Assembly (NCBI GenBank): GCA_017467085.1
Contig: JAFTSW010000059.1
Location: forward strand, 1,604-65,603
DNA length: 64,000 bases
Reading direction: 5' to 3'
Source: Clostridia bacterium
GTDB taxonomy: Bacteria; Bacillota; Clostridia; Oscillospirales; CAG-272
Numbering within the stretch: the first letter of the stretch is position 1; each line of letters begins with the position of its first letter. The notes under the pieces were generated by a model. That model had not been told where the DNA came from. It saw nothing but the letters and a program-made list of their open reading frames with translations, and did not search any database. Shown in pieces: positions 1 to 58,820 of the stretch. Both the position numbers and the translations under genes were made by a program.

Positions 1-2104
1 CCGTCACACCAAAGGTCGCCAGAAGGATACTTAAACAAATAGGCAACATCATCAAAGAGGAGGCAAGACAAAGGGCGCGCATCTTTTTCGGCGGCACGGA
101 CAGGGAATAAAGAATTTTATATTCCTCCTCACGCCTTTGCGCAATGGCGTTTTGCGCATAAACCCAAAGCAAGGGGAAAAAGAGAAATAGCAAGAGGGAA
201 AGGGTCGGTATAAACTGTGAATAGCAGTAATTTTTCTCAATTTCCGCACGGAAGGAGGCGCCGCTGATAGAAACGGTGGCGTTGCCTAAAACGGCGCAGA
301 TGCGAGAAAGCTCGTCAAATGCCAAGTCATAATTTTCGGCAGAAGAGGTATCTACCGAAACAGACACCGTTTTGGCGGTGACACTCTCGCCCGTTAAGGC
401 TTGATAGGTATCGGTGGAGAGCAAAAGCGGAACCCCATTCATGCCGCTGGGGTAGTCCTCGATGATGCCGACAATTTCCAGGGTAACAAGCTGATAGGAA
501 ATGCGCTCGTACATCTGCTGCCAAAGGCCCTCGCCCGTTTCAAGCTCGGAGGGAAGCTTGTCGCCGTTCAGCACCAGCTCGCCCTCCTCGTCATACATAG
601 GGATAGCAACCCTGACAGTATCGCCAACGGAATAGGAGAAGGTGTCCCTGTTTTGATAGGAGGAGCCGATAATCACACGGTTGGGCCCGTCTAAAAGCGC
701 ATCGGGATTGCCCTCAATCTGATACAAAGATTTGTAATATGCCAAGGTATCGTAGGCGGCGGCAATGATGCGCGCATCTCCCGTATAGGAAACGCCTGCC
801 GCCGTATCGTTGGCAAAGCCGACGTTGCTTGCAATCAAGGAATCGTCCACCAAAAGAAGGGAATGGTACTTGGTCAAGAGTGCTTCCGGGTAAACACGGT
901 GGGCGTTCTTGATTCCGTTTGCGGAAGCCAAGGATTCGTACTGAGAGTCCGAAACAGAGTTAATTCCACGGAATTGTACGGTGAAATCCGACAAAGCTTT
1001 GCTTTCCATGTCCTTGTTAGCTTGATAAACGTCACCTATCAGCGTACCAAGCACTAAAAGGGCGCATAGAAGGACGGAAACGCAAGCCGAAACAATGTGA
1101 TGCTTGCGGAAACGCCAGAAGGAGAGCGCCTCATAACCGAAGGGAAAGCCCTTTTGCACAAGCGGGGCGGATTGACGCGGTGAGCTGACAAGGTCAGAAG
1201 CGTCCGCTGCCTGCAAAAGCTCGCATACGGGCTTGCGGGACAATAGCTTGATGGGTGTGCGCACCACTAAGAGCAAAAGCGGTGCCATAACAAGAAGCAG
1301 CACCAGCCAATTTTTCAAAGAAAACCAAGAAAAATAGAAGGCAGAAGCACCCGCTGTATAAAAAGCGAAGCAAATGAGAGCGGATAGGTAATAGGCAGGC
1401 AAAAGTGTGAAAAGGGCAATCAGATAGAGCTGTGTAAAGGCGTTTTCCTGTAGTCGCTTGCTATCTGCGCCAAAGGTAGAAAAGATACCGAAGGAGAAGG
1501 TCTGGCGGCTGACGTACAGTCTATACAGCACGAAAAGCATCAGAAAGCAGATAAGAAAGACGGCCACTATTAACAGGTTTCGGGCGGTAGCAAGGGAAGC
1601 GGTGCTTTCCTCCAATAGATAGAGCGGGGAAAGGTATATGGATACGTGATCGGACGCCTCGCCTATAATATCGCCGTATTTATACAGCATCGCCTCATAA
1701 TTGGCGCGCAAGGAATCATCACGGAACAGAGAAAAAATTCCATAGTCCTTGTTACCCGTCAAAAGCTTTACCGTCATATCGTAGCTGGGGTCGCCGTTAG
1801 GGCTGGTATATTCCTTTATCGTCAAAGGAGTATAATAAAATTCGTTCAGAAAAACGGCACGGCGGTTTTCCTTCAGAATAAGCATTTCGTCCTCATAAAG
1901 CCCCGTAACAAGGATATGGTAGGAGTAGGAAGCCTCCGTTTCCTGCTTCAGGTGGGCTTCATTGCTCTGGAATGAAAGAAGGACGGTGAAGAAAATGCAT
2001 TGTACTAAAAAAATCGCCAGAAAGAAAGGGAGGAATTCCTTAAAGGAATGCTTGATTTTATGAAAAGCCGTTTGGACACTTCGCTTAATATGCTCCATCT
2101 GCAT
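1..2104 (-). CDS. FtsX-family ABC transporter permease (3' end runs off the left window edge)
   Basis: Stop-free minus-strand frame from position 1 to the ATG at 2102-2104 (MQMEHIKRSVQTAFHKIKHSFKEFLPFFLAIFLVQCIFF...). It is missing from the ORF track only because there is no stop in the window. The hand-translated stretch 1442-1561 gives VFLICFLMLFVLYRLYVSRQTFSFGIFSTFGADSKRLQEN, an FtsX-domain-like signature. No competing long ORF lies in 1-2100. Confidence 0.6.
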   Translation of the reverse strand, partial: MQMEHIKRSVQTAFHKIKHSFKEFLPFFLAIFLVQCIFFTVLLSFQSNEAHLKQETEASYSYHILVTGLYEDEMLILKENRRAVFLNEFYYTPLTIKEYTSPNGDPSYDMTVKLLTGNKDYGIFSLFRDDSLRANYEAMLYKYGDIIGEASDHVSIYLSPLYLLEESTASLATARNLLIVAVFLICFLMLFVLYRLYVSRQTFSFGIFSTFGADSKRLQENAFTQLYLIALFTLLPAYYLSALICFAFYTAGASAFYFSWFSLKNWLVLLLVMAPLLLLVVRTPIKLLSRKPVCELLQAADASDLVSSPRQSAPLVQKGFPFGYEALSFWRFRKHHIVSACVSVLLCALLVLGTLIGDVYQANKDMESKALSDFTVQFRGINSVSDSQYESLASANGIKNAHRVYPEALLTKYHSLLLVDDSLIASNVGFANDTAAGVSYTGDARIIAAAYDTLAYYKSLYQIEGNPDALLDGPNRVIIGSSYQNRDTFSYSVGDTVRVAIPMYDEEGELVLNGDKLPSELETGEGLWQQMYERISYQLVTLEIVGIIEDYPSGMNGVPLLLSTDTYQALTGESVTAKTVSVSVDTSSAENYDLAFDELSRICAVLGNATVSISGASFRAEIEKNYCYSQFIPTLSLLLFLFFPLLWVYAQNAIAQRREEEYKILYSLSVPPKKMRALCLASSLMMLPICLSILLATFGVT

Positions 2105-2265
2105 CTCCCGCAAAATACAATTTTTTCTATTGTAACAGATATATTTGAATACTGTATGAATATTTGACTTTCAAGGAAAATAAATATGGCGAAAATCTCT
2201 TGTCGACAGCGATGCTTGACTGATTGTGAATGAAATGTTAAAAATGCAATTTTGAAACAGAAATG

Positions 2266-2377: not shown

Positions 2378-4162
2378 ATGAAGGAAATTACCAAGATTCC
2401 GTACGTTGACGAATGGATTCAGGATATGGCAGCTATGACGCAGCCTGACAGAATCGTTTTAATCGACGGTACCGAAGAGCAAGCCGAGGCTCTGCGTGCT
2501 GAGGCAGTATCCACCGGAGAGCTGTTCAAGCTGAACCAGGATGTTCTGCCCGGTTGCTATTTGCACAGAACCGCCGTTAACGACGTTGCCCGCGTGGAGG
2601 GACGTACCTTCATCTGCACCACCAAGAAGGAGGATGCCGGTAACATCAATAACTGGATGGCTCCCGCAGAGTGCTACGCAAAGCTGACCAAGCTTTACAC
2701 GGGCTCTATGAAGGGAAGAACGATGTACGTGATTCCTTATTCTATGGGTCAGGTTGGCTCCGATTTCGCTAAATACGGCATTGAATTGACCGACTCTATC
2801 TACGTTGTTCTGAACATGCTGATTATGACCCGTGTTGGTCTTAACGTGTTGGAGGCAATGGGCGATGGCGAGGGCTTCATCAAGGGTCTGCACGCAAGAG
2901 CTGACATCGACGAGGAAAACCGTTATATCTGCCATTTCCCCGAGGACAACACCATCTGGTCCGTTAACTCCGGCTACGGCGGAAACGTGCTGCTGGGCAA
3001 AAAGTGCTTTGCGCTCCGTATCGCTTCTTACCTGGGTAAGAAGGAGGGCTGGATGGCAGAGCATATGCTCATCCTTGGCATTGAATATCCTGATGGCGAA
3101 ATTCGCTATATCAGCGCCGCATTCCCCTCTGCTTGCGGTAAGACCAACCTTGCAATGCTGATTCCCCCTGAAATCTATCAGAAGAAGGGCTACAAGGTTT
3201 GGTGCGTCGGTGACGATATTGCTTGGCTCCGTGTCGGCAAGGACGGGCGTCTTTGGGCTATTAACCCCGAGAACGGCTTCTTTGGCGTTGCTCCCGGAAC
3301 CAACGAGCGCTCCAACCCCAACGCGCTGCACACCACCACCAAGAACACCATTTTCACCAACGTGGCATTGGATACCGATACCAATACCGTTTGGTGGGAG
3401 GGCTTGAACGATAACCTGCCTCACCACTGCATCGACTGGAAGGGTAACGTTTGGGATTACACCAAGTTCGACAAGAAGGATAAGTCCACCTGTGCCGCAC
3501 ATCCCAACTCCCGCTTCACCGCAATGGCTGTGAACTGCCCCTGCCTGTCCTCTGAGTTTGACAATCCCGCTGGCGTTCCTATCTCCGCCATCGTATTTGG
3601 CGGAAGACGCGCTAAGACCGCTCCTCTGGTTTACCAGTCCTTCAACTGGCAGCACGGTACCTTCGTAGGCTCCATTATGGCTTCCGAGACCACCGCTGCG
3701 GCAGCAGGCGCTGTTGGCGTTGTTCGCCGTGACCCCATGGCAATGCGTCCCTTCGTTGGTTACGATATGGGCGATTACTGGGCACACTGGCTCGAAATGG
3801 GTAAGAAGATTCCCAACGCTCCCAAGATTTTCCACGTTAACTGGTTCAGAACTGACGATGAAGGACACTTCATCTGGCCCGGCTTCGGTGACAATATGCG
3901 TGTTCTGCTTTGGATTTTGGCTCGTTGCGAGGATAAGGTAGACGCCAAGACTACCGCTATCGGCTACGTTCCTAACGCAGACGATATCAACATTGAGGGC
4001 TTGGATTTGGATAAGGCAACCCTGGAGGGCCTGCTCTCTGTGGATACCGAGTCCTGGAAGGCTGACCTTGTGAACATCAAGGAGTTCTACGCCCAGGTTG
4101 GCGAGAGAGTTCCTGCTGAAATGTTCAGCGAGCTGAAGGCTCTGGAAGAGCGCCTCGGTTAA
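2378..4162 (+). CDS. pckG: phosphoenolpyruvate carboxykinase (GTP)
   Basis: 594 aa. Contains the GTP-PEPCK kinase-1a P-loop FPSACGKTN and family-typical blocks (NWMAP, YGGNVLLGKKCFALRIAS, WFR..DEGHFIWPGFGDN). RBS AAAGGAG sits before the ATG. Confidence 0.95.
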   Translation: MKEITKIPYVDEWIQDMAAMTQPDRIVLIDGTEEQAEALRAEAVSTGELFKLNQDVLPGCYLHRTAVNDVARVEGRTFICTTKKEDAGNINNWMAPAECYAKLTKLYTGSMKGRTMYVIPYSMGQVGSDFAKYGIELTDSIYVVLNMLIMTRVGLNVLEAMGDGEGFIKGLHARADIDEENRYICHFPEDNTIWSVNSGYGGNVLLGKKCFALRIASYLGKKEGWMAEHMLILGIEYPDGEIRYISAAFPSACGKTNLAMLIPPEIYQKKGYKVWCVGDDIAWLRVGKDGRLWAINPENGFFGVAPGTNERSNPNALHTTTKNTIFTNVALDTDTNTVWWEGLNDNLPHHCIDWKGNVWDYTKFDKKDKSTCAAHPNSRFTAMAVNCPCLSSEFDNPAGVPISAIVFGGRRAKTAPLVYQSFNWQHGTFVGSIMASETTAAAAGAVGVVRRDPMAMRPFVGYDMGDYWAHWLEMGKKIPNAPKIFHVNWFRTDDEGHFIWPGFGDNMRVLLWILARCEDKVDAKTTAIGYVPNADDINIEGLDLDKATLEGLLSVDTESWKADLVNIKEFYAQVGERVPAEMFSELKALEERLG

Positions 4163-4174
4163 TTTTCCTACTGT

Positions 4175-4209
4175 GCGGTCCTGTGATTTTGTCACAGGAC
4201 CGCTTTTTT
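4175..4209 (+). terminator. rho-independent terminator after pckG
   Basis: 12-bp stem GCGGTCCTGTGA / TCACAGGACCGC with a 5-nt loop, followed by TTTTTT. Confidence 0.8.
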
Positions 4210-4294
4210 CTTGCAATACAGAAAAAAGAAGATAAGAAAACGAAAAAAACAGCAAAAAATGTGAAAAAAACTGCTTATTTTTTGCTTTTTTCTC

Positions 4295-4341: not shown

Positions 4342-4415
<74 letters not shown>

Positions 4416-4418
4416 TAG

Positions 4419-4494
4419 GCGCCCTTAGCTCAGTGGATAGAGTGCCCGGCTACGAACCGGTAGGTCGCAAGTTCGAATCTTGCAGGGCGCGCCA
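4419..4494 (+). tRNA. tRNA-Arg (anticodon ACG), CCA encoded
   Basis: 76 nt. Acceptor GCGCCCT/AGGGCGC, D-arm GCTC-AGTGGATA-GAGT, anticodon loop CTACGAA, T-arm GCAAG-TTCGAAT-CTTGC, discriminator G plus CCA. One C-T mismatch at the top of the anticodon stem. Confidence 0.88.
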
Positions 4495-7255: not shown

Positions 7256-7303
7256 AAAACTGCAAGGTTTTTCAAAAAAATGCGATTTTTTCGCTAAATA
7301 CTA

Positions 7304-7332
7304 TTGCAAAAAAATAAAAAATAGTGTAGAAT
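7304..7332 (+). promoter_or_regulatory. sigma-A promoter upstream of efp (TTGCAA-17-TAGAAT)
   Basis: TTGCAA at 7304-7309, 17-nt spacer, TAGAAT at 7327-7332. Leaves a leader of about 95 nt. Confidence 0.5.
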
Positions 7333-7431
7333 ATATGAGATAGCAAAAGCCGAAGAAACCGTCGTTGCAACGGGCGAGGGAGCGATTTCTTCAACTATAT
7401 TGACTTTCCGTTGCGAAATAGGTGAATAACC

Positions 7432-7989
7432 ATGGTTACAGCAGGAGATTTTAAGAACGGCGTTACGTTTGAATTTGAGGGTGGCGTTTGGCAGGTTGTT
7501 GAGTTTCAGCACGTAAAGCCCGGCAAGGGTGCCGCATTCGTCAGAACCAAGATGAAGAACGTTATTACCGGTGCGGTGGTTGAGCGTTCCTTCAACCCCA
7601 CCGAAAAATTTGAGAATGCCATCATCGAGCGTAAGGAAATGCAGTATCTTTACAACGATGGCGATTTGTACTACTTTATGGATATGGAGTCCTATGACCA
7701 GCTGCCCCTGAACTCGGACAAGCTGGGTGACAACTTCAGATTCGTGAAGGAAAACACCATGTGCAAGATTATTTCCTACAAGGGCAACGTATTCAGCGTT
7801 GAGCCTCCTTTCTTCGTAGAGCTTGAGGTTACCGATACCGAGCCCGGCGTTCGTGGCGATACCGCTACCAACGTACAGAAGAACGCCACCCTGGAAACCG
7901 GCGCCACCATCAAGGTTCCGATTTTCATTAACACGGGCGATATCATCCGTGTTGATACGCGCGTTGGCGAGTATCTGGAAAGAGCATAA
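7432..7989 (+). CDS. efp: elongation factor P
   Basis: 185 aa. N-terminus [43 protein letters not shown], including the conserved KPGKG loop. Confidence 0.97.
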
Positions 7990-8016
7990 ATTTCTTCTTT
8001 GAAGGAGGATACGGAT

Positions 8017-8457
8017 ATGAATTTGAGTGAAAGCGCTGCTTATTTGAAGGGCCTGGCAGACGGCATGGGTCTGAACGAGAACGAGCCTAAGGACAAGCTG
8101 ATTCTGAAGCTTCTCGACCTTGTGAACGATATGGCAGAAACGGTTGAAAATCTGGAGCAGCAATGCGACGATTTGCGTGACTACGCCGATGAGCTGGATT
8201 CTGACCTTGGTGACGTAGAGGAGTACCTCTTCTGCGATGACGAGGACGATGATGACGAGGATTACGAGGAGGACTTCGATGACGAGGACCTCTACGAGGT
8301 TACCTGCCCCTCCTGCGGCGAGGTTATCTGCTTCGACGATACATGCGACGTAGAGCAGCTGGTTTGCCCCGCCTGCGGCGAGGAATTTGATTGCACCGAG
8401 GAATGCGACGGCGATTGCGCCGCTTGCGCCGAGGATTGCGACGAAAAGGGCGAATAA
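8017..8457 (+). CDS. acidic zinc-ribbon protein (resembles the clostridial 'CD1247 N-terminal domain' family)
   Basis: ATG at 8017 lies 8 nt after GAAGGAGG. Helical N-domain (AAYLKGLADGMGL...), a poly-D/E linker, then CPSCG...CPACG plus a Cys-rich acidic tail. Sits immediately after efp. Confidence 0.6.
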   Translation: MNLSESAAYLKGLADGMGLNENEPKDKLILKLLDLVNDMAETVENLEQQCDDLRDYADELDSDLGDVEEYLFCDDEDDDDEDYEEDFDDEDLYEVTCPSCGEVICFDDTCDVEQLVCPACGEEFDCTEECDGDCAACAEDCDEKGE

Positions 8458-8471
8458 TCTCATACAACGAA

Positions 8472-21829: not shown

Positions 21830-22114
21830 CCTTTTCCCTTCTTTCTGCTATAAGAGGCTCAAAAGGGTTTCTTGCAGAAACACCTCTCTTTCTATATTGT
21901 AACATTTTTCCTTTTAATTGTCAATTCAAAATACGCTTCTTTTTCTTTTTTTATGTGTCCTTTTTCGGCAAAATACACGAAAAGAGCGAAACCAGGTCAA
22001 TGGAATTCCCTATTCTTCATTATGCGAAGAACAAAGTCGCTTTTATACCCACTTTCGTCAAAACCGCAAGAAAAAGACAGGCAGGCAACTTTTAATACCT
22101 TTCGTTCTTTTGTG

Positions 22115-22143
22115 TTGACAAAAAGATAAAACGATGGTATAAT
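22115..22143 (+). promoter_or_regulatory. near-consensus sigma-A promoter (TTGACA-17-TGgTATAAT) of the carboxyltransferase operon
   Basis: TTGACA at 22115-22120, 17-nt spacer, TGgTATAAT at 22135-22143. The predicted TSS (about 22150) lies after the ORF-track ATG at 22147. Confidence 0.7.
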
Positions 22144-22179
22144 ACTATGAGAATGAAGACTTTCGAAAGGAGAATCAGC

Positions 22180-23649
22180 TTGAAAGATTCGAATTCTGTT
22201 TTCAATACGTCTTTTCCGATGGACAATCCGTCTGTGCGTCCCCTTCCCTCCGCCGAGGAGCTGAAGGAAGCTTTGGCGGCATCCGAAAAGTCGGACACCC
22301 GTCAGGTGCTGACGGCTCTTTTTGACGAAAACACCTTTGTTGAGCTTGGTGTATATATGAAAAAGAGCTTTTCCGAATACGCATACACGGGAGAAACCAA
22401 CGATTTTGAAGGGGTTATTTGCGGCTATGGCGCCATCGACGGTCAGCTGGTGTACGCCTTTGCCCAGGATATTTCCCGTATGAACGGCGCTATGGACGAT
22501 ACCCACGCCAATAAAATCGTATCCCTTTACAAGATGGCGATGCGCAATGCCGCGCCCGTGGTCGCCGTTTTCAACAGCGCAGGGGCAGACATTTACGAGG
22601 GCGTCAGCTCTCTTGCCGCCTACGGTAAGGTAATGCGCGCCGTGGCAGAGGCCTCCGGCTTTATTCCCCAGATTGCCATTGTTTCGGGCGATTGCACGGG
22701 AATTGCTTCCCCTCTCGCCGCCTGCTTTGACTTTATCGTGGCAGTTGAGGGCGCCTCCTTCTACGTGCGTTCTCCCGAATTCAGCGGAACCAACGAAGCA
22801 AACGAAACGGTAGCCGCCTTGGTTGCCAAGGACGGTGCCGCGGCTGCTGCCGAGGTTAGAACCCTTCTCTCCTATATTCCTGCCAACGCCGAGGAGGGCG
22901 TTCGCCCCGGAAGATGCGCTGACAGCTTGAATCGCTTGCTCGGCGACCAGAACTTCGGACAGGATTTGCACAATATGCTGGCAGTCCTGGCGGATAACGG
23001 CATTTACAAGGAAATTTATCCCGAAACTGCTCCCTCCTTTATGACTGCCTTTACCTGTATTGGCGGCGTAAGATGCGCCGTTTGCGGCAATACCGTTCAG
23101 GACGGAACGGCTATGCTGAGCGGTATGGAGGCGCGTAAGGCTGCTCGCTTTGTTTCCTTCTGTGACGCATTTTCTATCCCCTTGATTACCATCGTCGATA
23201 CGGCAGGCTTTGCCTTCTGCAAAAAGAAGGAAAACACCGCTTTCGTACTTTCTCTCTCCTCCCTTGCCTTTGCTTACGCCAAGTCGCAGATGCCGAAAAT
23301 CAGCGTTATTGTAGGGCGCGCTATTGGCGGGGCCTACACCCTTCTTGGCTCTAAGGCGCTTTGCGCGGACGTTGCTTACGCCCTGGCAGATACCGAAATC
23401 GGCGCTCTTTCTGCCGATGCCGCCGTTGCGTTTGCCTGGAATGACCGTGTCACGCTGGACAGAAGTCGCGAAAGCTTGGAGGAGGAATGGAAGGCGACCC
23501 TCGCCTCTCCCGTTGCTGCCGCCTGCAAGGGTGAAATTGATGACATTATCACCGTATCCGAAATGCGTCAGCGCATTTGCTCGGCGCTTCTGATGCTCGC
23601 CGCCAAGGGCACCGTATCCAAAAAGCGGCACAGCATTTTGCCGCTGTAA
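22180..23649 (+). CDS. acyl-CoA carboxyltransferase, 12S / MmdA / PccB family (divergent)
   Basis: Carboxyl_trans blocks: GVICGYGAIDGQLVYAFAQD, NSAGADIYEG, ARKAARFVSFCDAFSIPLITIVDTAGF, GRAIGGAYTLLGS. The proposed TTG start at 22180 is 7 nt after AAGGAG. The start is uncertain (alternatives 22147 and 22219). Confidence 0.85.
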   Translation: MKDSNSVFNTSFPMDNPSVRPLPSAEELKEALAASEKSDTRQVLTALFDENTFVELGVYMKKSFSEYAYTGETNDFEGVICGYGAIDGQLVYAFAQDISRMNGAMDDTHANKIVSLYKMAMRNAAPVVAVFNSAGADIYEGVSSLAAYGKVMRAVAEASGFIPQIAIVSGDCTGIASPLAACFDFIVAVEGASFYVRSPEFSGTNEANETVAALVAKDGAAAAAEVRTLLSYIPANAEEGVRPGRCADSLNRLLGDQNFGQDLHNMLAVLADNGIYKEIYPETAPSFMTAFTCIGGVRCAVCGNTVQDGTAMLSGMEARKAARFVSFCDAFSIPLITIVDTAGFAFCKKKENTAFVLSLSSLAFAYAKSQMPKISVIVGRAIGGAYTLLGSKALCADVAYALADTEIGALSADAAVAFAWNDRVTLDRSRESLEEEWKATLASPVAAACKGEIDDIITVSEMRQRICSALLMLAAKGTVSKKRHSILPL

Positions 23650-23659
23650 GGAGGACGCT

Positions 23660-23950
23660 ATGGGGTTTATTCAAAGCAATTTACCGTGGCTCATCGTGTG
23701 CTTCATTCTGCTTGCTCTGTTCTTGACCTTCTTCATTCTGTATATGCATTCTTACTTGCAAATGCGTAGAAAAAAGAAGGCAGAAGGAGAAATCAAGCAT
23801 CTGCACATTGATTCTCATGACGAAAACGAGCTTCCGGAGGACGTGCTGGTGGCACTGCTCACCGCCGCCGTTGCCTACATTTACGGCAAGAAAAAGACGA
23901 AATTCCGTGTTGTTTCCTTCCGCCACGTTTCTTCCAAGAACGGGCAATAA
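23660..23950 (+). CDS. OadG-family (decarboxylase gamma-subunit-like) small membrane protein
   Basis: 96 aa. Single N-terminal TM segment (LPWLIVCFILLALFLTFFILY), and a C-terminal PEDVLVALLTAAVAYIYG...FRVVSFRHV typical of OadG/MmdD-type anchors. RBS AAGGAGG. Confidence 0.7.
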   Translation: MGFIQSNLPWLIVCFILLALFLTFFILYMHSYLQMRRKKKAEGEIKHLHIDSHDENELPEDVLVALLTAAVAYIYGKKKTKFRVVSFRHVSSKNGQ

Positions 23951-23985
23951 TCGCATATCTTTTGGATTAGAAAGGATGTATTCTT

Positions 23986-24342
23986 ATGAAAAAGTTTAAT
24001 ATTACGGTGCTTGGTAAGACATACGAGGTTTTGGTGGAGGATATGGGCGACGTGATTGCCGATGCTCCCTCTACCCTTCCTACCTCCGCTTATACCACGG
24101 CTGACGTTATTCCCGCAGAGCCCGAAAAGGAGCGCCAGATTGCCTCCCCTGTCAGCGGTATCATCCGTGAAATTCTGGTTGAGGTCGGCATTAAGGTAGA
24201 GCAAGGCACGCCCCTTTGCATTTTGGAGGCAATGGAAATCCAGAACACCATCCCTGCGCCCGAGGACGGCATTGTTTCTCAAATTTTCGTACAAGAAGGC
24301 TCCGCTGTGGAGGCAGGAACAGTATTGATTACCTTACATTGA
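23986..24342 (+). CDS. biotinyl/lipoyl-domain protein, 1.3S / MmdC-like, lacking the biotinyl-lysine
   Basis: MKKFNITVLGKTYEVLVED N-terminus and the C-terminal hairpin PLCILEAMEIQNTIPAPEDGIV align with 1.3S (VLVLEAMKMETEINAPTDGKV). Glu84 (GAA at 24235-24237) replaces the Lys. Confidence 0.85.
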   Translation: MKKFNITVLGKTYEVLVEDMGDVIADAPSTLPTSAYTTADVIPAEPEKERQIASPVSGIIREILVEVGIKVEQGTPLCILEAMEIQNTIPAPEDGIVSQIFVQEGSAVEAGTVLITLH

Positions 24343-24353
24343 GGTAGGTTTTT

Positions 24354-25757
24354 ATGCCAAGATTAAAAATAACCGAAACGGTTCTTCGCGGCGCGCAGGA
24401 ATCCTTAGCCAATGCCCGTATGACAACGGCTGAAATGGTGCCCATTTTGCCTATTCTGGATAAGGTGGGCTATCATTCCTTAGATGCCTGGGGCGGTGCT
24501 ACCTTTGACACCTGCCTGCGTTACCTGAACGAGGACCCCTGGAAAAGACTGCGGATTATCCGTGCCAACGTCCGAAACACCAAGCTGATGATGGTGCTTG
24601 GCGGACAGTGCCTCTTGGGATATTCCCATTATCCCGACGATATCGTGCAGTTCTTCGTGCAAAAATCCATTGCCAACGGCATTGATATTTTGCGTATGTA
24701 TGACCCTTTGAACGACGTGCGAAACCTGGAGGTTCCCATTCGTGCGGCGAAGCGGGAAAAGGCAACCGTGCAAGGCACCATTTGCTGCACGGGCGAGAAT
24801 GCCGACAATGGCAAGTATTACCTGGATTATGCCAAGAGGCTCTTGGATTTGGGGGCAGACTCTATTTGTATCCAGGATACCGCAGGGCTTTTGCGCCCGT
24901 ACAGCGCCTATCAGATTATTAAAACACTGAAGGCGTATGATCCCAATATACAAATTCAGCTTAGCACCCACTATACCTCGGGATTGGCTTCTATGACCGT
25001 TCTAAAGGCGGTGGAGGCTGGGCTTGATATCGTGGATACCGCCATCTCCCCCTTCTCTCTCGGTGCTTCTCAGCTTTCTACCGAAACGATTTTGTCCACA
25101 CTGCGTAAAACGCCCTATGAAACCGAGCTTGATACCTACGCCTTGAACCAGGCGGCTGAATACTTCACCAGCATTAAGCTCCGCTATTTGCGTACAGGAC
25201 AGATGAATGAACGCATTTTTGATACAAACGTTTCCGCCTTGGAAACGGGTGTTTCAGGTGAAATGCAGCATCACGTACAAAAACGCCTTCGCCAAGCCAA
25301 AAAGGAAAGCCGCTTTGAGGAGGTTATGGAGGAAATTCCTCGGGTTTTGGCAGACGCGGGACACGTTCCCTTGGTTTCCCCTATATACGAGATTATCGGC
25401 ACGCAAGCCATCATCAACGTGTTGACAGGTGAGCGCTACAAGGTCGTATCGACCGATTTCCGCGAGTTAATCCGCGGCAGCTACGGCACGCTTCCCTCTC
25501 CCATCAGCCGCGATTTCCAAAGGAAAATCGTGAAGGACGGGCAGATTGTCACGGAGCGCCCTGCCCTTCAGCTGGCGCCTGCCGTTGAAAAATACCGTAT
25601 ACAGGCCGCCCCTTATGCCGAGCAGGAGGAGGACCTTCTCTCCTTGGCACTTTTTGAGCAAAGCGCCACCCAGTTCTTTGAATGGCGCAAAAAGCAACGC
25701 TATAATCTGGACGGACGGGGACGGGTTTCCTCTAAATCCGCCGTTCATCCCATATAA
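24354..25757 (+). CDS. 5S / OadA-type (HMGL-like TIM barrel + PYC_OADA) carboxyltransferase homologue, metal-site degenerate
   Basis: WGGATFDTCLRYLNEDPWKRLR, LLGYSHY, EIPRVLADAGHVPLVSPIYEIIGTQAIINVLTGERYK match the family. The canonical motifs read LRGAQES, ICIQDT and LSTHYTSG instead of LRDAHQS, (A/L)KDM and LHCH. Confidence 0.85.
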   Translation: MPRLKITETVLRGAQESLANARMTTAEMVPILPILDKVGYHSLDAWGGATFDTCLRYLNEDPWKRLRIIRANVRNTKLMMVLGGQCLLGYSHYPDDIVQFFVQKSIANGIDILRMYDPLNDVRNLEVPIRAAKREKATVQGTICCTGENADNGKYYLDYAKRLLDLGADSICIQDTAGLLRPYSAYQIIKTLKAYDPNIQIQLSTHYTSGLASMTVLKAVEAGLDIVDTAISPFSLGASQLSTETILSTLRKTPYETELDTYALNQAAEYFTSIKLRYLRTGQMNERIFDTNVSALETGVSGEMQHHVQKRLRQAKKESRFEEVMEEIPRVLADAGHVPLVSPIYEIIGTQAIINVLTGERYKVVSTDFRELIRGSYGTLPSPISRDFQRKIVKDGQIVTERPALQLAPAVEKYRIQAAPYAEQEEDLLSLALFEQSATQFFEWRKKQRYNLDGRGRVSSKSAVHPI

Positions 25758-25762
25758 CAAAA

Positions 25763-25805
25763 AAGACAGAAAAACGGTTTTTTTCCGTATTTTCTGTCTT
25801 TTCTT
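25763..25805. terminator. bidirectional terminator between convergent operons
   Basis: AAGACAGAAAAACGG-ttttttt-CCGTATTTTCTGTCTT flanked by A/T runs. Confidence 0.7.
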
Positions 25806-25813
25806 TTGCCCTT

Positions 25814-27412
25814 TTAAGAGGGCTGGTTCTTTTTGATAAGCGACTCTATTTTTCGCTTAATTTTACTGTTTCCTCTTGCTACCCCGAACTCGGTAAAGCT
25901 AATACAGCCCTCAAAGGCATCGTTACTTATATACGCAACGCCCTTCCCGAAGAACACGGAACGAAGATTTTTACAGTCGGCAAAGGCCCCTTCGCCTATA
26001 ACGGTTACGTCGTTTGGAATAGTAACCTCCTTCAGCGTTTCGATTCCGTAGAACGCCTCTGCGCCTATCCGCTCAACTCCCTCAGGTATTATAAGGCTTT
26101 CAAGCAGAGCGCCGTTGACAAAAAAGCGCTTTAAGCTTCCAAAGGGAGCACTACCGAAAAAGTAGGAGGTCGTATCCATTTGAAACTCCGTTTGGGTATA
26201 GAGCGCCAAATCCTCTACGTACACCGTTTCTAACAGGGGGCACCCTGCAAAGGCGGTGGTGCTGGCTTTCTCTGCCCCACTAAAGTGAAGCTCCTTTAAC
26301 AGAGCCCAGCCAAAAAAGGCGTGCCCTCCCAAATAAGAAAGATGCCGCGGAATAGTGAGGCTTTCGCTACCCAGACAATCCTGGAAGGCGCAATCCCCGA
26401 TATAGGAGATATTAGGCGGCAAGGTGTCCATACGCAGATGCTGGCAGTTATAAAAGGCTCCTACCCCGATTTTCCGTATACATTTCGGCAGAGAAAGGCT
26501 ACCTAAGGAGATACAGCTTCTGAATGCGTTTTCGGGAATTTCCTCGATACCCTCCCCCTCCCAGCGCAGTTCTTCAAGTCCCGTTGCGCCATCAAAGCAG
26601 TAGGGACCTATCGAGCGAAGCTTCACGGGCAATGCAATGCCTCTTAACGCACCGCAGTCCGCAAAGGCTTTCTTTCCGATGCTCTCCAAGGACGCAGGAA
26701 GATTAATTTCCTCCAAAGCCCTGCAATAATGAAAGGCGCCTTCTTTAATGGTGTGTACGGTGTCGGGCAAAGCGACTCTCTTTAAGCCGATGCAGTTGGA
26801 AAACAGGTATTCCTCAATCACCGATACCCCGTTTGGAATATCAATGCTTTCTAATTTACTGCATCCTGCAAAAGCACCGTATCCAATCTCGGTCAAGGAA
26901 CCAGGCAAATGAACGCAACGCAGGCATAGCAGACTCTGAAAAGCGTTCTTGCCTATTGCCCTCACGCCCTCGCCGATATAAATTTCCTCGGCGTACGTAT
27001 ACGGTAGAACGGCGCTTTGGTCTACCTCTGTCACGCCCTCGATGCGGACAACCTTTTTCCTTTCCTCTTCTGTCTTTCTTTTCAAGGTGTACCGATGCGA
27101 ATCGTAGTCAAGCTCGTCCCCTTCGACAACGGAAAAGGTTTGCTTTTCTGCCTCGGCGAAATACAAAATGCCGCTTTTTTCTCCGCGGATAACGGAAATC
27201 CCAACCAGCTCCCCGTTTTCAATGACGTAGCTTTCCCGTTCAATCGATACACGGTAGGTGCTTTCAGAGGAGGAAGCAAGAACTCTGTACGGTTGGGGAG
27301 AGGAATGCCAGAAGCGCACGCATTGAAGGTAGTAGGCATCGGCAATACTGTCCCACGCCTGCCATTGCTCCTCGGAATATTGCTTGTTATTATCCATCGT
27401 GCCTGCTTTCAT
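25814..27412 (-). CDS. BspA-type leucine-rich-repeat (LRR_5) protein, no signal peptide
   Basis: Repeats of the form I(G/E)..AF..C..L..I.LP..(L/V)..I. The N-terminus MKAGTMDNNKQYSEEQWQAWD is hydrophilic. The start is ambiguous (27412 or 27397). Confidence 0.85.
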   Translation of the reverse strand: MKAGTMDNNKQYSEEQWQAWDSIADAYYLQCVRFWHSSPQPYRVLASSSESTYRVSIERESYVIENGELVGISVIRGEKSGILYFAEAEKQTFSVVEGDELDYDSHRYTLKRKTEEERKKVVRIEGVTEVDQSAVLPYTYAEEIYIGEGVRAIGKNAFQSLLCLRCVHLPGSLTEIGYGAFAGCSKLESIDIPNGVSVIEEYLFSNCIGLKRVALPDTVHTIKEGAFHYCRALEEINLPASLESIGKKAFADCGALRGIALPVKLRSIGPYCFDGATGLEELRWEGEGIEEIPENAFRSCISLGSLSLPKCIRKIGVGAFYNCQHLRMDTLPPNISYIGDCAFQDCLGSESLTIPRHLSYLGGHAFFGWALLKELHFSGAEKASTTAFAGCPLLETVYVEDLALYTQTEFQMDTTSYFFGSAPFGSLKRFFVNGALLESLIIPEGVERIGAEAFYGIETLKEVTIPNDVTVIGEGAFADCKNLRSVFFGKGVAYISNDAFEGCISFTEFGVARGNSKIKRKIESLIKKNQPS

Positions 27413-27442
27413 CCTTCCCAACCGACAAACTTTTAGTGTTTT

Positions 27443-29509
27443 TTAAGCTTCCTTCGGCGCCTCAGCAATAATCTTTTGGGCTACGTTCGCGGGAACCTCC
27501 TCATAGCGGACGAAGGTAAAGTCGAAGCGCGCGCGACCTTGGGTCATAGCACGCAGAGCCACCACGTAATCCGTCATTTCGGCGGTAGGTACTTCGGCGA
27601 TAACGACCTGCTGCCCTGCTTTATGGGCGGCTTCTATGCCGTTTACACGGCCACGGCGACGGTTGAGGTCACCCATAACGTCACCCACGTACGCATCGGG
27701 GGTATAGACACGCAGCTCACCCACAGGCTCAAGCAGCACGGGAGAGGCGTTGGGAATACCGTTCTTGTATGCCAAGGCGGCAGCCAGCTTAAAGGAAATC
27801 TCGTTACTGTCTACATCGTGATAAGAGCCGTCATACAGATTGGCAGCCAGGCGAACCAGGGGATATCCTGCCAAGACACCGTGTGCCATACAATCCTGCA
27901 AGCCCTTTTCAACAGCGGGGAAATAGTTCTTGGGTACGGAGCCGCCAACAACCGAGGTGGTAAAGGTGAGTCCCTCCTCCTCGCCGGGCTCGAATACGAT
28001 TTTAACGTGACCGTACTGACCGCTTCCGCCCGACTGCTTCTTATGCTTTCCTTCCGTGTCTACTCTCTTTCTGATGGTTTCACGGTACGGGATACGGGGC
28101 GTTTCCAGAACAACGGAGGTGCCAAAGCGATTCTTCAGCTTGGCAACGGCAATATCCAGATGGGTATCGCCCAAGCCGTACAGCACCAGCTGCTTGGTTT
28201 CGGCGTTGTTTTCAAAGCGCATAGTGGAGTCCTCCTCCAAAAGCCGCGCAATACCGCCCGAAATCTTATCCTCGTCGCCCTTTCCCGCAGGCACGACAGC
28301 CTTGGAGGCATATGCCTTGGGGTAAGTGATTTTTGCGTATTCGGCGTTGCTCTCGCCGTTGGTCAAGGTATCGTTGGTGCTGGTGGCAACCAGCTTGGAG
28401 GTCATACCGATGTCACCGCAGGCAAGCTCCTGCACCTCCTCCTGCTTCTTGCCGCGCACTACGTATATACGGGAAATCTTTTCCTGGGTGTCGCTGGTCA
28501 GGTTCCGCAGGGTGTCATCACGGCGCAAGGTACCGTTCATAACCTTAAAGAAGGACATTTTGCCCACAAAGGGGTCGGAATAGGTTTTGTATACGAAGAG
28601 GGAGGTTACGCTTCCCTCCTTATCAATGGCGATTTCGTCGCCGTCCTCGGAAAGCTCCACCTTCTTGGCGGTATGACGGGGATAGGAATCCGCAATGGTA
28701 TCAAGCAGGGTCTTAACGCCCCACATCTTGGTTGCGGCACCGCAGAACACGGGAACGATTTCACCCGAAATAATACCGTTATGGATAGCAAGCACCGAAT
28801 CCTCACGGGAAATGGGCTCACCCGCAAAGAACTGCTCCATTAATGCCTCGTCTGTCTGGGCGATGGACTCATACAGCATATTTCTGTACTTCTCCGCAAT
28901 TTCCATAAACTGCTCGGGAATAGGCAGAGATACGTAGTCACCTGTTGCGGAGTCAAAGATATAGCTTTCAAAGTCAAGCAAATCCAAGAAGCCCGTTACC
29001 TTATCCTCGTCAATCATAGGAATCTGCACGGGACAAACGGCAACACCAAAGCGCTCACGCAGGGCTTCAAATACCTTATAGAAGCGCGCCTCGGGGTCAT
29101 CAAAGCGGTTGATAAAGAAGGACTTGGGAATACCAAGCTCCTCTGCCATATCCCAGGCAAGCTCGGTGCCGACCTCAATACCTGCCTTACCGTCAACCAC
29201 GATTAAAGCGGCGTCTGCCACACGAATGGCTTGACGAACCTCGCCCTCAAAGTCGGGGTAACCGGGGGTATCCAGGACGTTGACCTTTATGTTCTGCCAA
29301 ACCAAAGGAGCGATAGAAGCGCTAATGGAAAATCCGCGACGGATTTCTTCTGCGTCATAGTCGCTGACCGTATTTCCGTCTGTCACCTTGCCGAGTCTGT
29401 CGGTTGCCTTTGCGATATACAGCATCGCTTCTGCCAGCGAGGTTTTTCCTGCGCCGCCGTGACCGAGCAAGCATACGTTTCGAATGTTTTTGGTTTCAAA
29501 CAATTCCAT
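27443..29509 (-). CDS. elongation factor G paralogue (EF-G2-like translational GTPase)
   Basis: 688 aa. G1 GHGGAGKTS, G3 DTPGYPDF, G4 variant NRFD, domain IV YHDVDSNE, and five-domain EF-G length. Confidence 0.9.
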   Translation of the reverse strand: MELFETKNIRNVCLLGHGGAGKTSLAEAMLYIAKATDRLGKVTDGNTVSDYDAEEIRRGFSISASIAPLVWQNIKVNVLDTPGYPDFEGEVRQAIRVADAALIVVDGKAGIEVGTELAWDMAEELGIPKSFFINRFDDPEARFYKVFEALRERFGVAVCPVQIPMIDEDKVTGFLDLLDFESYIFDSATGDYVSLPIPEQFMEIAEKYRNMLYESIAQTDEALMEQFFAGEPISREDSVLAIHNGIISGEIVPVFCGAATKMWGVKTLLDTIADSYPRHTAKKVELSEDGDEIAIDKEGSVTSLFVYKTYSDPFVGKMSFFKVMNGTLRRDDTLRNLTSDTQEKISRIYVVRGKKQEEVQELACGDIGMTSKLVATSTNDTLTNGESNAEYAKITYPKAYASKAVVPAGKGDEDKISGGIARLLEEDSTMRFENNAETKQLVLYGLGDTHLDIAVAKLKNRFGTSVVLETPRIPYRETIRKRVDTEGKHKKQSGGSGQYGHVKIVFEPGEEEGLTFTTSVVGGSVPKNYFPAVEKGLQDCMAHGVLAGYPLVRLAANLYDGSYHDVDSNEISFKLAAALAYKNGIPNASPVLLEPVGELRVYTPDAYVGDVMGDLNRRRGRVNGIEAAHKAGQQVVIAEVPTAEMTDYVVALRAMTQGRARFDFTFVRYEEVPANVAQKIIAEAPKEA

Positions 29510-38756: not shown

Positions 38757-38930
38757 CGTATACTCCTCTTGTTTCAATAATAAAGCCAACCCAAAACAAG
38801 GGTTGACCATTCACCGAAATGTATTATATAACATTTTCTTCAAATTGTCAAGCCCTTACCACCTTTATTAACAGAAGCAAAAAAAAGGTCATTACATATG
38901 ATAAAAATAGAGAAAAAGGAGGTTTTTCAT

Positions 38931-40019
38931 ATGTTCTATGAAAAAGAGAGCGCTTTTTTAGAGGGGACCTATCTGATAAGCGCCAATTCGGAAAACGGAT
39001 TTTATGGGTATTTTGACAAGGTTTTTTCTCCATATACGCTTGACAAGCTACTTATCATACACGGCGGCTCAGGGACGGGAAAAAGCAGCGCTATGAGAAA
39101 GATAGCCGTCCAACTAAAAGAAGAGGGGGCATTAGTGGAGGAAATCCGCTGCTCCTCCGACCCCGACTCCTTGGACGGTGTTCTGCTACACAAAAACGAA
39201 AAAACCGTTGGAATAGTAGACGGCACACATCCTCACGCACACATTGCCCTGCTCCCGGGGCTACGGGATGAGGAATGGGATTTCAGCCGTTTCTTGGACG
39301 AGGGGGCGCTACAAAAGGAGGACACGCACATTCTCGATTTGCAAAGGCAAAAGAAAAAGGCGTACCAAAGAGCATACGCCCTCTTGGCGCCTGCCGCCGC
39401 CTGTCACAGGGAGGCTCTGCGACAAAGGGGCGAGAAATTTCATCTTGAAGCGGCGGCGCTCTCGGCGCGGCGGCTGCTCCAAAAGCTTCTGGGGGAGAAG
39501 GAGGCAAGAGGGGGCGCTTACACCCCACGGTTTATCCGCGCCTTTTCTATGAAGGGCGAAAGAGCCTTGGAGGCTTGGGCGCCCAAGGGGACACGCTTTG
39601 TGGAAATTCGGGGCGATAGGTATTCTGCCGAATGTTATCTATCAGCTTTAGCGGAAGAAGCTAAGGCGCTTTCTCTTCCCTTCGTGCCGTTTTCTTCTCC
39701 CTTATGTGCCGAGGCTTTGGACGGCTTATACTTTCCCCTTGAGCGTCTTGCCATTGTCAAGCATACCTTAGCGCCCAAGGAGAAGGTAGAGCGCACCGTC
39801 TACGCCACCCGCTTTTTATCCGAAAGACGGAAAGGCACCGTTACCCCCATACAAAGAATAGAGGAGGAATTAAAGAGAGAGGCACTTCTGGCATTAGAGG
39901 AGGCGGCAAGCCTGCACTTTGCGCTTGAGGCGCTTTATTCCTCTCATATGGATTTCGAGGGGCTTTCTCAAGAGGTGAGGGCAAAAGGGGATGCTTTAGC
40001 GCGTTTTTTGGAAAAATAA
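38931..40019 (+). CDS. P-loop NTPase of unknown function (resembles the PRK06851 family)
   Basis: ATG 38931 lies 8 nt after AAGGAGG. Walker A GGSGTGKSS, then CSSDPDSLDGVLL and VGIVDGTHPH blocks. Confidence 0.6.
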   Translation: MFYEKESAFLEGTYLISANSENGFYGYFDKVFSPYTLDKLLIIHGGSGTGKSSAMRKIAVQLKEEGALVEEIRCSSDPDSLDGVLLHKNEKTVGIVDGTHPHAHIALLPGLRDEEWDFSRFLDEGALQKEDTHILDLQRQKKKAYQRAYALLAPAAACHREALRQRGEKFHLEAAALSARRLLQKLLGEKEARGGAYTPRFIRAFSMKGERALEAWAPKGTRFVEIRGDRYSAECYLSALAEEAKALSLPFVPFSSPLCAEALDGLYFPLERLAIVKHTLAPKEKVERTVYATRFLSERRKGTVTPIQRIEEELKREALLALEEAASLHFALEALYSSHMDFEGLSQEVRAKGDALARFLEK

Positions 40020-55048: not shown

Positions 55049-55089
55049 GAAAAAAATCAAAACTTTCACATAATTTTTTCAAAAGTCTA

Positions 55090-55118
55090 TTGACAGTTTT
55101 TTCTTTTTGCAATATAAT
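55090..55118 (+). promoter_or_regulatory. consensus sigma-A promoter of tig (TTGACA-17-TATAAT)
   Basis: TTGACA at 55090-55095, 17-nt spacer, TATAAT at 55113-55118. Confidence 0.6.
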
Positions 55119-55162
55119 ATATAGGATTGAATTATTAATGATTCTATGGAGGATGAAAACCA

Positions 55163-56446
55163 ATGAGTCTGACGAAAAAGACCGAAATTGAAAAGAATTG
55201 CTACGAGCTGGAATTTACCATTTCCAAGGAAGCCTTTGAAGCGGCTATGAACGATGCTTACCGCAAGAACGTGAAGAAGATGAACGTTCCCGGCTTCCGC
55301 AAGGGTAAGGCTCCCCGTTCCATCATCGAGAAGATGTATGGCAAGGGCGTTTTCTATGAGGATGCGCTGAATGCCTGCATCGGCCCTGCTTACGAGGAGG
55401 CTGCCAAGGAATCCGAGCTCGCTATCGTGGGCCGTCCCGAGTTTGACGTTGTTTCTATCGAGGACAATGCCCCTGTTATGAAGGCAAAGGTTTACGTAAA
55501 GCCTGAGGTTACCATTGAGAACTATCTTGGTATCGAGGTTACGAGAACCGAGAAGGTTGCTGACGAGGCTGCTGTAAACGCAGAGCTTGAAAGAGTTCGC
55601 GAGCGCAACGCCAGAATGCTGGACGTAACCGACAGAGCCGCCGCTATGGACGATACCGTTACCATCGACTACGTTGGCACCATTGACGGTGTTGCTTTCG
55701 AGGGTGGCAGCGCAAATGACCATTCTCTGAAGCTTGGCAGCGGTGCCTTTATCCCCGGCTTTGAGGAGCAAATCGTTGGCAAGAGCATCGGCGAAACCTT
55801 TGATGTGAACGTTTCCTTCCCCGAGGATTATCACGCAACCGATTTGGCAGGCAAGGCAGCTGTATTCTCCGTTACCCTGAAGGAAATCAAGGCAACCGAG
55901 CTTGCTCCCTTGGACGATGAGTTCGCTAAGGACGTTTCCGAGTTCGATACCCTGGACGCCTACAAGGCTGACATCCAGGCAAAGCTCCAGGAGCGCTTCA
56001 ACAAGGAGATGGAGAGCGAGGTTTCGGACAAGCTGATGGATGCTCTCTTGGAAAGAATGCAGGCTGACATTCCCGAGGTTATGTTCGAGATGGAAACCGA
56101 AAACGAGCTGCGTGATATGGACAACAACCTGAGAATGCAGGGTCTTGACCTTTCCACCTACTGCAAGTACTGCGGTATGGATTTGGATATGATTCGCGCT
56201 CAGCTCCGTCCTCGTGCTGAAAAGCAGGTTAAGGTTCGCTTGACCCTGGAAAAGATTGCCGCTCTTGAGAATCTGACCGCAAGCGCCGAGGCCATTGAGG
56301 ATGAATACAAGCGTATTTCCGAGGCATATAATGTACCTATGGACCAGGTAAAGGCTATGATTGACGAAAAGGATTTGGCCGAGGACCTGAAGGTTAAGGC
56401 CGCTATGGACCTTGTGAAAGAGAAAGCAGTTGTTACTGCCGCCTAA
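55163..56446 (+). CDS. tig: trigger factor
   Basis: 427 aa with the ribosome-binding signature GFRKGKAP and a central FKBP-type domain. Confidence 0.97.
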
Positions 56447-56456
56447 ATAACCGACT

Positions 56457-56492
56457 GCGTGCTTTCTTCTTTGGGGGAAGCACGCTGTTTTT
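56457..56492 (+). terminator. terminator/attenuator between tig and clpP
   Basis: GCGTGCTTTC-(9 nt)-GGAAGCACGC followed by TGTTTTT. Confidence 0.65.
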
Positions 56493-56520
56493 ATCAAAAA
56501 CAAAAAAGGAGATACCCATT

Positions 56521-58717: not shown

Positions 58718-58820
58718 GGCTTTTTTCGCTTTTTTCATCTCTTTTTGTGAAAAAATCAACGAAATTTCGGCTTTGCACCCCCAAAAAACAGGAAGGAGCT
58801 TTCCCACGGGAAAGAACGCC

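Follow-up and report, generated by a model that had tools for sequence, protein, structure and literature searches.

We identified, in the 64,000-nt stretch of contig JAFTSW010000059.1 analysed here (assembly GCA_017467085.1, a Clostridia bacterium of the CAG-272 lineage; hereafter the window), a four-gene operon that may well be a vertically inherited, strongly promoted and selectively kept biotin-free descendant of the clostridial cluster of carboxyltransferase (CT), gamma, carrier and OadA-like genes, with a CT that would still work by a biotin-independent activity and three other products that would be structural (probability about 0.5). Biotin enzymes are defined by a swinging biotinyl-lysine, and the carrier encoded in this operon has none. 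The elements of the operon are as follows.

22115..22143, plus strand: sigma-70 promoter (TTGACA at 22115-22120, a 17-nt spacer ending in TG at 22135-22136, TATAAT at 22138-22143)
22166..22182, plus strand: ribosome-binding site (AAAGGAGA at 22166-22173) and likely start codon of the CT gene (TTG at 22180)
22180..23649, plus strand: CT, 12S/MmdA-like, two crotonase-type domains, 489 aa (PF01039 in both halves, E = 2e-73)
23660..23950, plus strand: small membrane anchor, OadG-type by orthology and hydropathy, 96 aa
23986..24342, plus strand: biotin-carrier homologue, 118 aa (PF00364, E = 7e-18)
24354..25757, plus strand: 5S/OadA-type carboxyltransferase homologue, 467 aa (PF00682 and PF02436; 568 bits to NCBIfam OadA)
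25761..25807, plus strand: intrinsic terminator (17-bp hairpin at 25761-25802, flanked by an A tract upstream and a U tract downstream)

The carrier retains a conserved N-terminal segment (MKKFNITVLGKTYEVLVED), a linker and a biotinyl/lipoyl barrel, and matched the 1.3S subunit of Propionibacterium shermanii transcarboxylase at E = 9e-10. In an ungapped alignment to the solved carriers 2D5D and 1DCZ, its hairpin reads LEAM-E84-IQN against LEAM-K-MEN, so that Glu84 (codon 24235-24237) occupies the lysine column and the missing biotinyl-lysine claimed by the original prediction, a model's reading of the letters of this DNA, is borne out. Neither the window carrier nor any orthologue has a lysine in an (A/V)MKM hairpin: the column holds E or D throughout the orthologues of the clade (D in locus L006), N or S in sister lineages and K in 95 of 99 representatives. 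On these alignments, biotinylation of the carrier at the canonical site is impossible. Selection for an acidic carrier tip was considered and rejected, the residue being E or D in the window clade and L004-6, N in L117 and L090 and S in L118, and hence unconserved across the lysine-less clade as a whole.

The 5S-like subunit was aligned over its full length with Vibrio cholerae OadA (2NX9), the two-subunit pyruvate carboxylase (5KS8) and P. shermanii 5S (1RQB). Of its metal site (Asp, carbamylated Lys and two His), only H206 is left, D13G, K174Q and H204S being the three losses already claimed for four metal-site residues; they are joined by changes beyond that description (Q16E, R83G, M176T, T342S and QVPGGM to GVSGEM), with R12 alone kept among the substrate- and biotin-binding residues. 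In terms of motifs, LRD-AHQSL has become LRG-AQESL, LLRGQN has become VLGGQC, (L/I)KDM has become IQDT and LHCH/LHTH has become LSTH. No canonical Lys, Asp or His stands at a functional column of these alignments except H206. The roles that we give to individual 5S residues are presumed from homology and established literature, beyond what the alignments to solved structures show, and T342 we take on the same grounds to be the catalytic Thr of pyruvate carboxylase. Across about 100 loci from bacteria and archaea, the residues R-D-Q-R-K-M-H-H-T and the motifs Q[VI]PGGM and EAMK are essentially invariant outside the degenerate group. The predicted fold is intact (AlphaFold2 pLDDT 89, pTM 0.88), and the model superposed on the pyruvate-bound 5S structure 1RQH with a Foldseek TM of 0.91 and an rmsd of 1.8 Å. 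Two candidate lines of evidence for inactivation were discarded. The raw retention of conserved positions (129/193) is about equal to that of the nearest biotin-type subgroup when the two are compared (150/249 against 140/249); the count thus reflects lineage divergence, and only the identity of the lost residues, invariant in those loci, is informative. The change of His15 to Gln cannot serve as an early inactivation marker, since Asn, Gly and Gln all occur at that column in loci with beta pumps and EAMK carriers. With a homologous fold, absent catalytic residues and purifying selection (see below), both the 5S-like subunit and the carrier have the properties of pseudoenzymes. Because the canonical biotinylation site of the carrier is lost and most of the metal and substrate residues of the 5S-like subunit are gone, the ancestral reaction, that is, carboxyl transfer from oxaloacetate to biotin to acyl-CoA, is very unlikely in this complex as judged from its residues.

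The CT shows a different picture. It is a two-domain acyl-CoA carboxyltransferase whose best matches in the PDB were PCC beta and 12S (E = 1e-63 to 1e-67; P. shermanii 12S at E = 5e-63), with MmdA-like proteins also among its closest solved relatives, and it scored 284 bits against NCBIfam mmdA, for which the cut-off is 999, and only weakly against the MdcD and MdcE models (55 and 30 bits, far under their cut-offs); by its mmdA score it belongs to a distinct, divergent subfamily. Its odd motifs, SAGADIYEG for SGGARIQEG, GDCTGIA for GPCAGGA and the absence of HGAK, are common to its biotin-type relatives and are therefore family traits. Biotin-type CTs have 103 positions with a conservation of 95% or more, of which CTs of the degenerate clade retain 90, with few and conservative changes, and control groups of biotin-type CTs retain 86-93 of about 100. 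The CT thus looks intact relative to its own family, and here the original prediction, which had implied a degenerate CT, was wrong; its picture of a repurposed, biotin-independent or disabled complex is supported, with the amendment that the disabled subunits are the carrier and the 5S-like one only. As a separate observation, the CT loop at 23218-23235 (residues 347-352, CKKKEN), the counterpart of the PGxxQE loop in standard carboxyltransferases, has a Lys-Lys pair in each of the nine lysine-less CTs that we examined (window, L001-L006, L117 and L118; KKKEN, KKREQ, QKKED, DKKDD). The pair is absent from all of about 50 biotin-type relatives with a listed loop, and the charge of the loop ranged from -4 to +1 among 115 biotin-type relatives (YDDANQ, CDENEN, EEDE-E). 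The pair could co-vary with the carrier tip or merely reflect shared ancestry. A co-variation of charge between carrier tip and CT loop was not used as evidence, the loop being +2 in the clade with E/D tips but 0 in L117 and -1 in L118.

The anchor has a single N-terminal transmembrane helix (residues 11-29), a basic stretch and a conserved, predicted cytoplasmic tail, LTAAVA...KFRVVSFR. Although the window's own anchor gave no PF04277 match at E <= 1, 8 of its 13 positional orthologues matched this family (OAD_gamma, best E = 6.7e-16), and all orthologues aligned share the helix and an invariant FRVVSF tail. The proposed OadG-type assignment rests on orthology, not on the profile score of the protein itself.

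In a search of 5.8 billion proteins, the substitutions were shared by only five other clusters, P0002-P0006 (87-60% identity), and sequences from P0007 onward were canonical; the JGI metagenome collection yielded no further member closer than 57%. The same four genes, in the same order and with the same losses, occur in about nine assemblies, namely the contigs of the matching clusters (L001-L006) and species-representative metagenome-assembled genomes (MAGs) from faeces and water-deer rectum (L009-L011), and among species-representative genomes the fully degenerate form is found in only three species. Housekeeping genes flank the operon, with CoaE, peptidase M18, RF1 and Sua5 encoded on one side and an EF-G-like GTPase, a radical SAM protein, RadA, an amidase, Xer and YunB on the other. 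In L008, the biotin-type operon occupies this same neighbourhood (EF-G-like, radical SAM, RadA, amidase, Xer, YunB), which makes the window operon the positional orthologue of a normal operon and not a spare copy.

All four genes are under purifying selection. In pairwise Nei-Gojobori comparisons of the window with L001 or L002, the ratio of nonsynonymous to synonymous divergence (dN/dS) was 0.04-0.13 across the operon (CT 0.06, anchor 0.08-0.12, 5S-like 0.04-0.08), values that are upper-bound-like estimates only, as dS (0.85 to >2) is saturated. For this reason, we added two controls of conservation that do not depend on dS. Between the window and L001 or L002, the identities of CT, carrier and 5S-like subunit (88/91/87% for the first genome pair and 81/78/81% for the second) are similar to those of housekeeping neighbours in the same pairs (RF1 84/79, RadA 90/84, Xer 91/87, peptidase M18 89/87), with CoaE far lower (66/56) and Sua5 lower. 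At a matched genome distance (EF-G-like about 80%, RadA about 79%), the degenerate operons of the window and L004 are 70/51/63% identical in the three proteins, against 61/50/61% for the biotin-type operons of L008 and L014. By this measure, constraint on the degenerate complex is no weaker than on the biotin-type one. The claim that the operon is not simply decaying is thereby strengthened, since its orthologues share the substitutions and selection on this copy is purifying, instead of the orthologues being canonical with selection relaxed here.

The layout of the operon agrees with the first description. The four open reading frames (ORFs), 22147/22180-23649, 23660-23950, 23986-24342 and 24354-25757, are separated by the reported 10, 35 and 11 nt, and each of the three downstream genes has its own Shine-Dalgarno sequence. 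The promoter, described at first as near-perfect, is the sole 12/12 sigma-70 match, with TG extension, in the 6-kb region scanned; as the total of promoter-like sites in that region is no higher than in shuffles, its support comes from the conservation of the hexamers, which are identical in five loci with diverged spacers (L001, L009, L010 and L002 among them), while L004-6, L117, L008 and L007 likewise have TTGACA and a TG-type -10 element. The ATG at 22147 was rejected as the CT start because it lies 3 nt past the -10 hexamer and so off the transcript of that promoter. The likely start is the in-frame TTG at 22180, giving 489 aa: AAAGGAGA stands at the right distance upstream, the same length is called in orthologues, and every orthologous locus keeps GAAAGGAGA with a TTG start behind it. 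Directly past the last stop codon, the terminator, likewise part of the first description, has a folding energy of -28.7 kcal/mol (z = -5.5), which none of 200 shuffles reached, and is probably bidirectional, serving also the convergent gene that ends at 25814. A leader or riboswitch was rejected (Rfam gives just two tRNAs in the window, and the 5' untranslated region is about 30 nt), as was horizontal acquisition (GC, at about 0.50, does not set the operon apart from its neighbours, and relatives have the locus in synteny). Two ORFs antisense to the operon, one of 544 aa opposite the CT gene (21997-23631, minus strand) and one of 137 aa opposite the anchor and carrier genes (23881-24294), were, like other long antisense ORFs, taken as putative non-coding shadows.

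The relatives of the operon preserve intermediate states. In L012, L013, L091, L095-L100 and other loci, the operon numbers five genes, an OadB-type beta pump being encoded between carrier and OadA. Beta is missing from the four-gene operons of L007, L008, L014 and L093, in which the carrier has EAMKM and the 5S site is intact. The beta gene lies at 4732-5949 in L012 and at 4804-5979 in L013 and is also found in L107 and L110; the five-gene cluster joins an MmdA-like CT, an OadA-like CT, gamma, carrier and beta, a dual-substrate architecture that is possibly undescribed. Among the further lysine-less members that searches with the carrier brought up, L117 (GCA_054288325.1) and its relative L090 carry EAM-N-M, and the 5S subunit of L117 keeps every ligand and substrate residue, with M176A and the biotin loop RIPLQM. 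L118 and L119 carry EAN-S-A and have Q16E, R83C, M176T and T342Y in the 5S subunit while keeping D13, K174 and both His; L004-6 add K174Q and R83G, and the window clade adds D13G and H204S. In neighbour-joining trees, the lysine-less lineages form one clade (bootstrap 92% for CT, 92% for 5S and 100% for the concatenation) that is sister to the biotin-type L008 and L014, the grouping with them being supported at 100% in the CT and 5S trees. The simplest history consistent with these trees is a single loss of the biotinyl-lysine in the ancestor of an uncultured gut Clostridia clade, followed by stepwise, lineage-specific erosion of the 5S pocket. Locus L089 (120-1886) looks like an independent loss, as its carrier reads EAL-N-MQS, its 5S ligands are intact, its biotin loop is QFPVGT and its 5S subunit groups with that of the biotin-type L014, in which the loop is also altered (QVPTGI).

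A tblastn search of the window with the L012 beta subunit returned nothing below E = 0.5, and no OadB-type beta was found in L001-L011; no biotin carboxylase or biotin ligase domain was present among the ORFs of the window, whose neighbouring genes were identified via orthologues, which agrees with the stated absence of a beta pump gene, a biotin carboxylase and birA.

We next compared the operon with described systems. The original prediction could match it to none, but the Clostridium thermocellum cluster Clo1313_1523-1526 / Cthe_0699-0701, which carries the label of an oxaloacetate decarboxylase or of a putative transcarboxylase, has the same gene order (CT, gamma, carrier, OadA-like, no beta), with Clo1313_1523 as the OadA-like protein, Clo1313_1525 as the gamma subunit of a sodium-pump decarboxylase and Cthe_0699 as the carboxyltransferase (PMC5887222, PMC3561251, PMC5414155); this link rests on gene order, annotation in those papers and the biotin-type loci that we fetched. 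The C. thermocellum CT was recovered from the membrane fraction (PMC3039559), which fits an OadG-type anchor, and in a genome-scale model the cluster serves as a putative transcarboxylase that makes malonyl-CoA in an organism without standard acetyl-CoA carboxylase (PMC5414155, PMC8303734). The window operon has these four genes on one strand and no beta gene, and it is orthologous to biotin-type four-gene members, as seen from its synteny with L008 and its nesting beside L008 and L014; the biotin-type clusters fetched keep EAMKM, RDQRKMHHT and QVPGGM, unlike the window operon. On these comparisons it is a biotin-less variant of the clostridial four-gene cluster.

Methylmalonyl-CoA:pyruvate transcarboxylase of P. 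shermanii resembles the operon in that homologues of 12S, 5S and 1.3S are all present, as had been claimed of every transcarboxylase part; unlike that enzyme, the window complex lacks the biotinyl-lysine, three metal ligands and the pyruvate/oxaloacetate-binding residues, and has an extra anchor and a divergent CT. With the Na+-translocating decarboxylases OadGAB, Veillonella MmdABCDE and GcdABCD it shares an anchor that is OadG-type by orthology, a carrier that is a protein of its own with an N-terminal segment for association, and subunits resembling MmdA and OadA, but it has neither a beta subunit nor biotin, and from this gene content neither decarboxylation-driven Na+ pumping nor carboxybiotin formation is possible in it. 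Plant BADC proteins of plastid acetyl-CoA carboxylase are like the window carrier in having the carrier fold without a biotinylated lysine, in being conserved and in being thought to act within a complex (bioRxiv 10.1101/634550; PMC12706156); they occur beside functional BCCP paralogues, as modulators of an enzyme that is active, whereas the window carrier is the operon's sole carrier, the orthologue of a functional one, and its carboxyl-donor partner is dead as well. In malonate decarboxylase, the CT-fold subunits MdcD-MdcE decarboxylate a malonyl thioester without biotin (PMC5534430), as proposed here for the window CT, but malonate decarboxylase depends on MdcA and on an acyl-carrier protein bearing a special prosthetic group, for which the operon has no counterparts, and the window CT is of the 12S type, with two domains fused in one protein. 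A full-text literature search pairing pseudoenzyme with these enzyme names found nothing, and we know of no bacterial complex for which a carrier without the lysine or a dead carboxyltransferase subunit has been described as a conserved component.

These observations are best accommodated by a complex in which the CT would be the working part, with an activity independent of the operon's own biotin carrier, while the dead 5S-like subunit, the lysine-less carrier and the OadG-type anchor would be non-catalytic subunits that assemble the CT and tether it to the membrane. That the 5S pocket eroded after the loss of biotin while the CT did not argues that the CT site is still used, without its own carrier. 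The activity would most likely consist of acyl-CoA binding and biotin-independent decarboxylation of malonyl- or methylmalonyl-CoA, decarboxylation being the obvious candidate by analogy with MdcD-MdcE, which perform it on a CT fold without biotin (PMC5534430).

Several points weigh against this reading. All members are known from metagenome assemblies alone, and the trees are neighbour-joining trees only, in which long-branch effects are possible, though the CT, which is unaccelerated, gives the same clade. The saturation of dS given above counts here as well, and only the window and the fetched loci could be searched for an additional carrier, biotin ligase and other biotin enzymes. The CT family is atypical even in its biotin-type members (SAGADIYEG, G-x-C-x-G-x-A, no HGAK), and the retention of CT motifs may be explicable by constraints of fold and oligomer instead of catalysis. 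It is also hard to explain by scaffolding alone why a dead 5S-like subunit of 467 aa is kept as tightly as the CT. Finally, oxaloacetate decarboxylase activity was undetected in C. thermocellum, and the malonyl-CoA transcarboxylase role of its cluster is only a model assumption (PMC5414155, PMC8303734).

A more far-reaching version of the same reading, which we hold only tentatively, is that a whole multi-subunit biotin enzyme has turned into a biotin-free machine and has persisted as such over a long evolutionary period, in which the CT would be a biotin-independent acyl-CoA enzyme and the carrier and 5S-like subunit obligatory non-catalytic partners, the carrier hairpin possibly being docked for good on the Lys-Lys loop of the CT.

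Among the rivals, it is doubtful, though the best of them, that the complex is wholly non-catalytic, CT included, and kept for regulation, structure or some moonlighting function, for instance as a sensor of acyl-CoA or a membrane-associated scaffold, one that perhaps already existed in biotin-type relatives and outlasted the enzyme activity. Constraint of about equal strength on all four genes fits selection on assembly, the independent lysine loss in L089 makes carboxyl transfer seem dispensable in the beta-less subfamily, and a catalytic role of the parent complex in C. thermocellum was never demonstrated (PMC5414155, PMC8303734); however, the erosion of the 5S pocket without that of the CT motifs is easier to explain if the CT site is in use, and no known precedent or partner is evident.

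We consider it unlikely that the CT is served in trans, taking carboxybiotin from a carrier encoded elsewhere (an AccB/AccC-type pair, or PycB/OadA with a fused carrier) while the local carrier and 5S-like subunit act in assembly or regulation in the manner of BADC proteins. The full retention of the family-conserved CT residues is what would be expected if a biotin-dependent half-reaction persisted there, and plant lysine-less BCCP homologues do join and modulate a carboxylase complex (bioRxiv 10.1101/634550; PMC12706156). Such a carrier was nevertheless not encountered, as no second carrier, biotin carboxylase or ligase was found in the window or in any fetched locus; moreover, its position makes the operon an orthologue rather than a paralogue of the biotin-type one, and the conserved N-terminal segment of its carrier suggests that the carrier position is still occupied.

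New chemistry in the 5S-like barrel, with G13, E16, G83, Q174, T176 and S204 forming a metal- and biotin-independent site, is improbable. Some replacements are fixed (G83, Q174 and Q15 in all; D44, I188, F289, R311 and S437 in all six compared), and the TIM-barrel fold is predicted to be intact. Within the degenerate clade, however, 11 of the 16 former catalytic and biotin-loop positions vary, including 12, 13, 16, 176, 204 and 342, against 50% of all sites, which argues for relaxation and not for a new active site, and the different, partial states of L117 and L118 point to stepwise relaxation rather than convergence. Recent decay, or an assembly or sequencing artefact, can be set aside as extremely improbable: the loss of catalytic residues is where decay begins, and the relatives do show a trend in which the beta gene goes first, reducing five genes to four, and the lysine next, but the same substitutions recur, without frameshifts or stops, in about nine independent assemblies from different studies, and the divergence (dS 0.85 to >2), the low dN/dS, the conserved promoter and ribosome-binding site and the housekeeping level of conservation all speak against it.

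Other features of the window were also recorded. A GTP-dependent phosphoenolpyruvate (PEP) carboxykinase (PF00821 and PF17297) is encoded at 2378-4162 on the plus strand, followed on the same strand by tRNA-Gly(TCC) and tRNA-Arg(ACG) at 4342-4494; a 598-aa ORF antisense to the carboxykinase gene (2459-4255) is probably a shadow ORF. As the window encodes this enzyme and also acetate kinase, oxaloacetate is probably made in this organism. The convergent neighbour of the operon (25814-27421, minus strand) is a 535-aa protein with LRR_5 repeats that evolves fast, with 79% and 53% identity to its L001 and L002 orthologues against 81-94% for neighbours, and a melibiase gene takes its place in L004, L006 and L118. 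The 688-aa EF-G-like GTPase (27443-29509, minus strand) is the most conserved gene of the neighbourhood (94, 91 and 82% identity to L001, L002 and L004) and a stable synteny marker beside biotin-type and biotin-less operons alike. Five long ORFs (344-704 aa) had no Pfam match at E <= 1e-5: 2-2113 (minus), which extends beyond the end of the window, 7294-8463 (minus), 38898-40019 (plus), 55079-56503 (minus) and 58773-59807 (plus).

Collectively, the carboxyl-donor half and the carrier of this complex appear dead but are conserved to the same degree as core housekeeping genes, which places a whole complex, not a single subunit, in pseudoenzyme territory, with its intermediates preserved; the stepwise states (L117, L118, L004-6 and the window clade) amount to a natural experiment in the conversion of a complex into a pseudo-complex. 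The biotin-type parent cluster abounds in gut Clostridia and in cellulolytic ones, and to our knowledge its reaction has never been pinned down. Since the complex appears to have survived the loss of biotin at least twice, its persistence suggests a second, biotin-independent role of the parent cluster. Automatic annotation labels the products 'pyruvate carboxylase subunit B' and 'biotin/lipoyl-binding protein', and with such labels metabolic reconstructions of these gut MAGs would be wrong at the PEP-pyruvate-oxaloacetate node. If the biotin-free machine with obligatory dead partners proved true, it would represent a new functional class in the transcarboxylase/decarboxylase superfamily.

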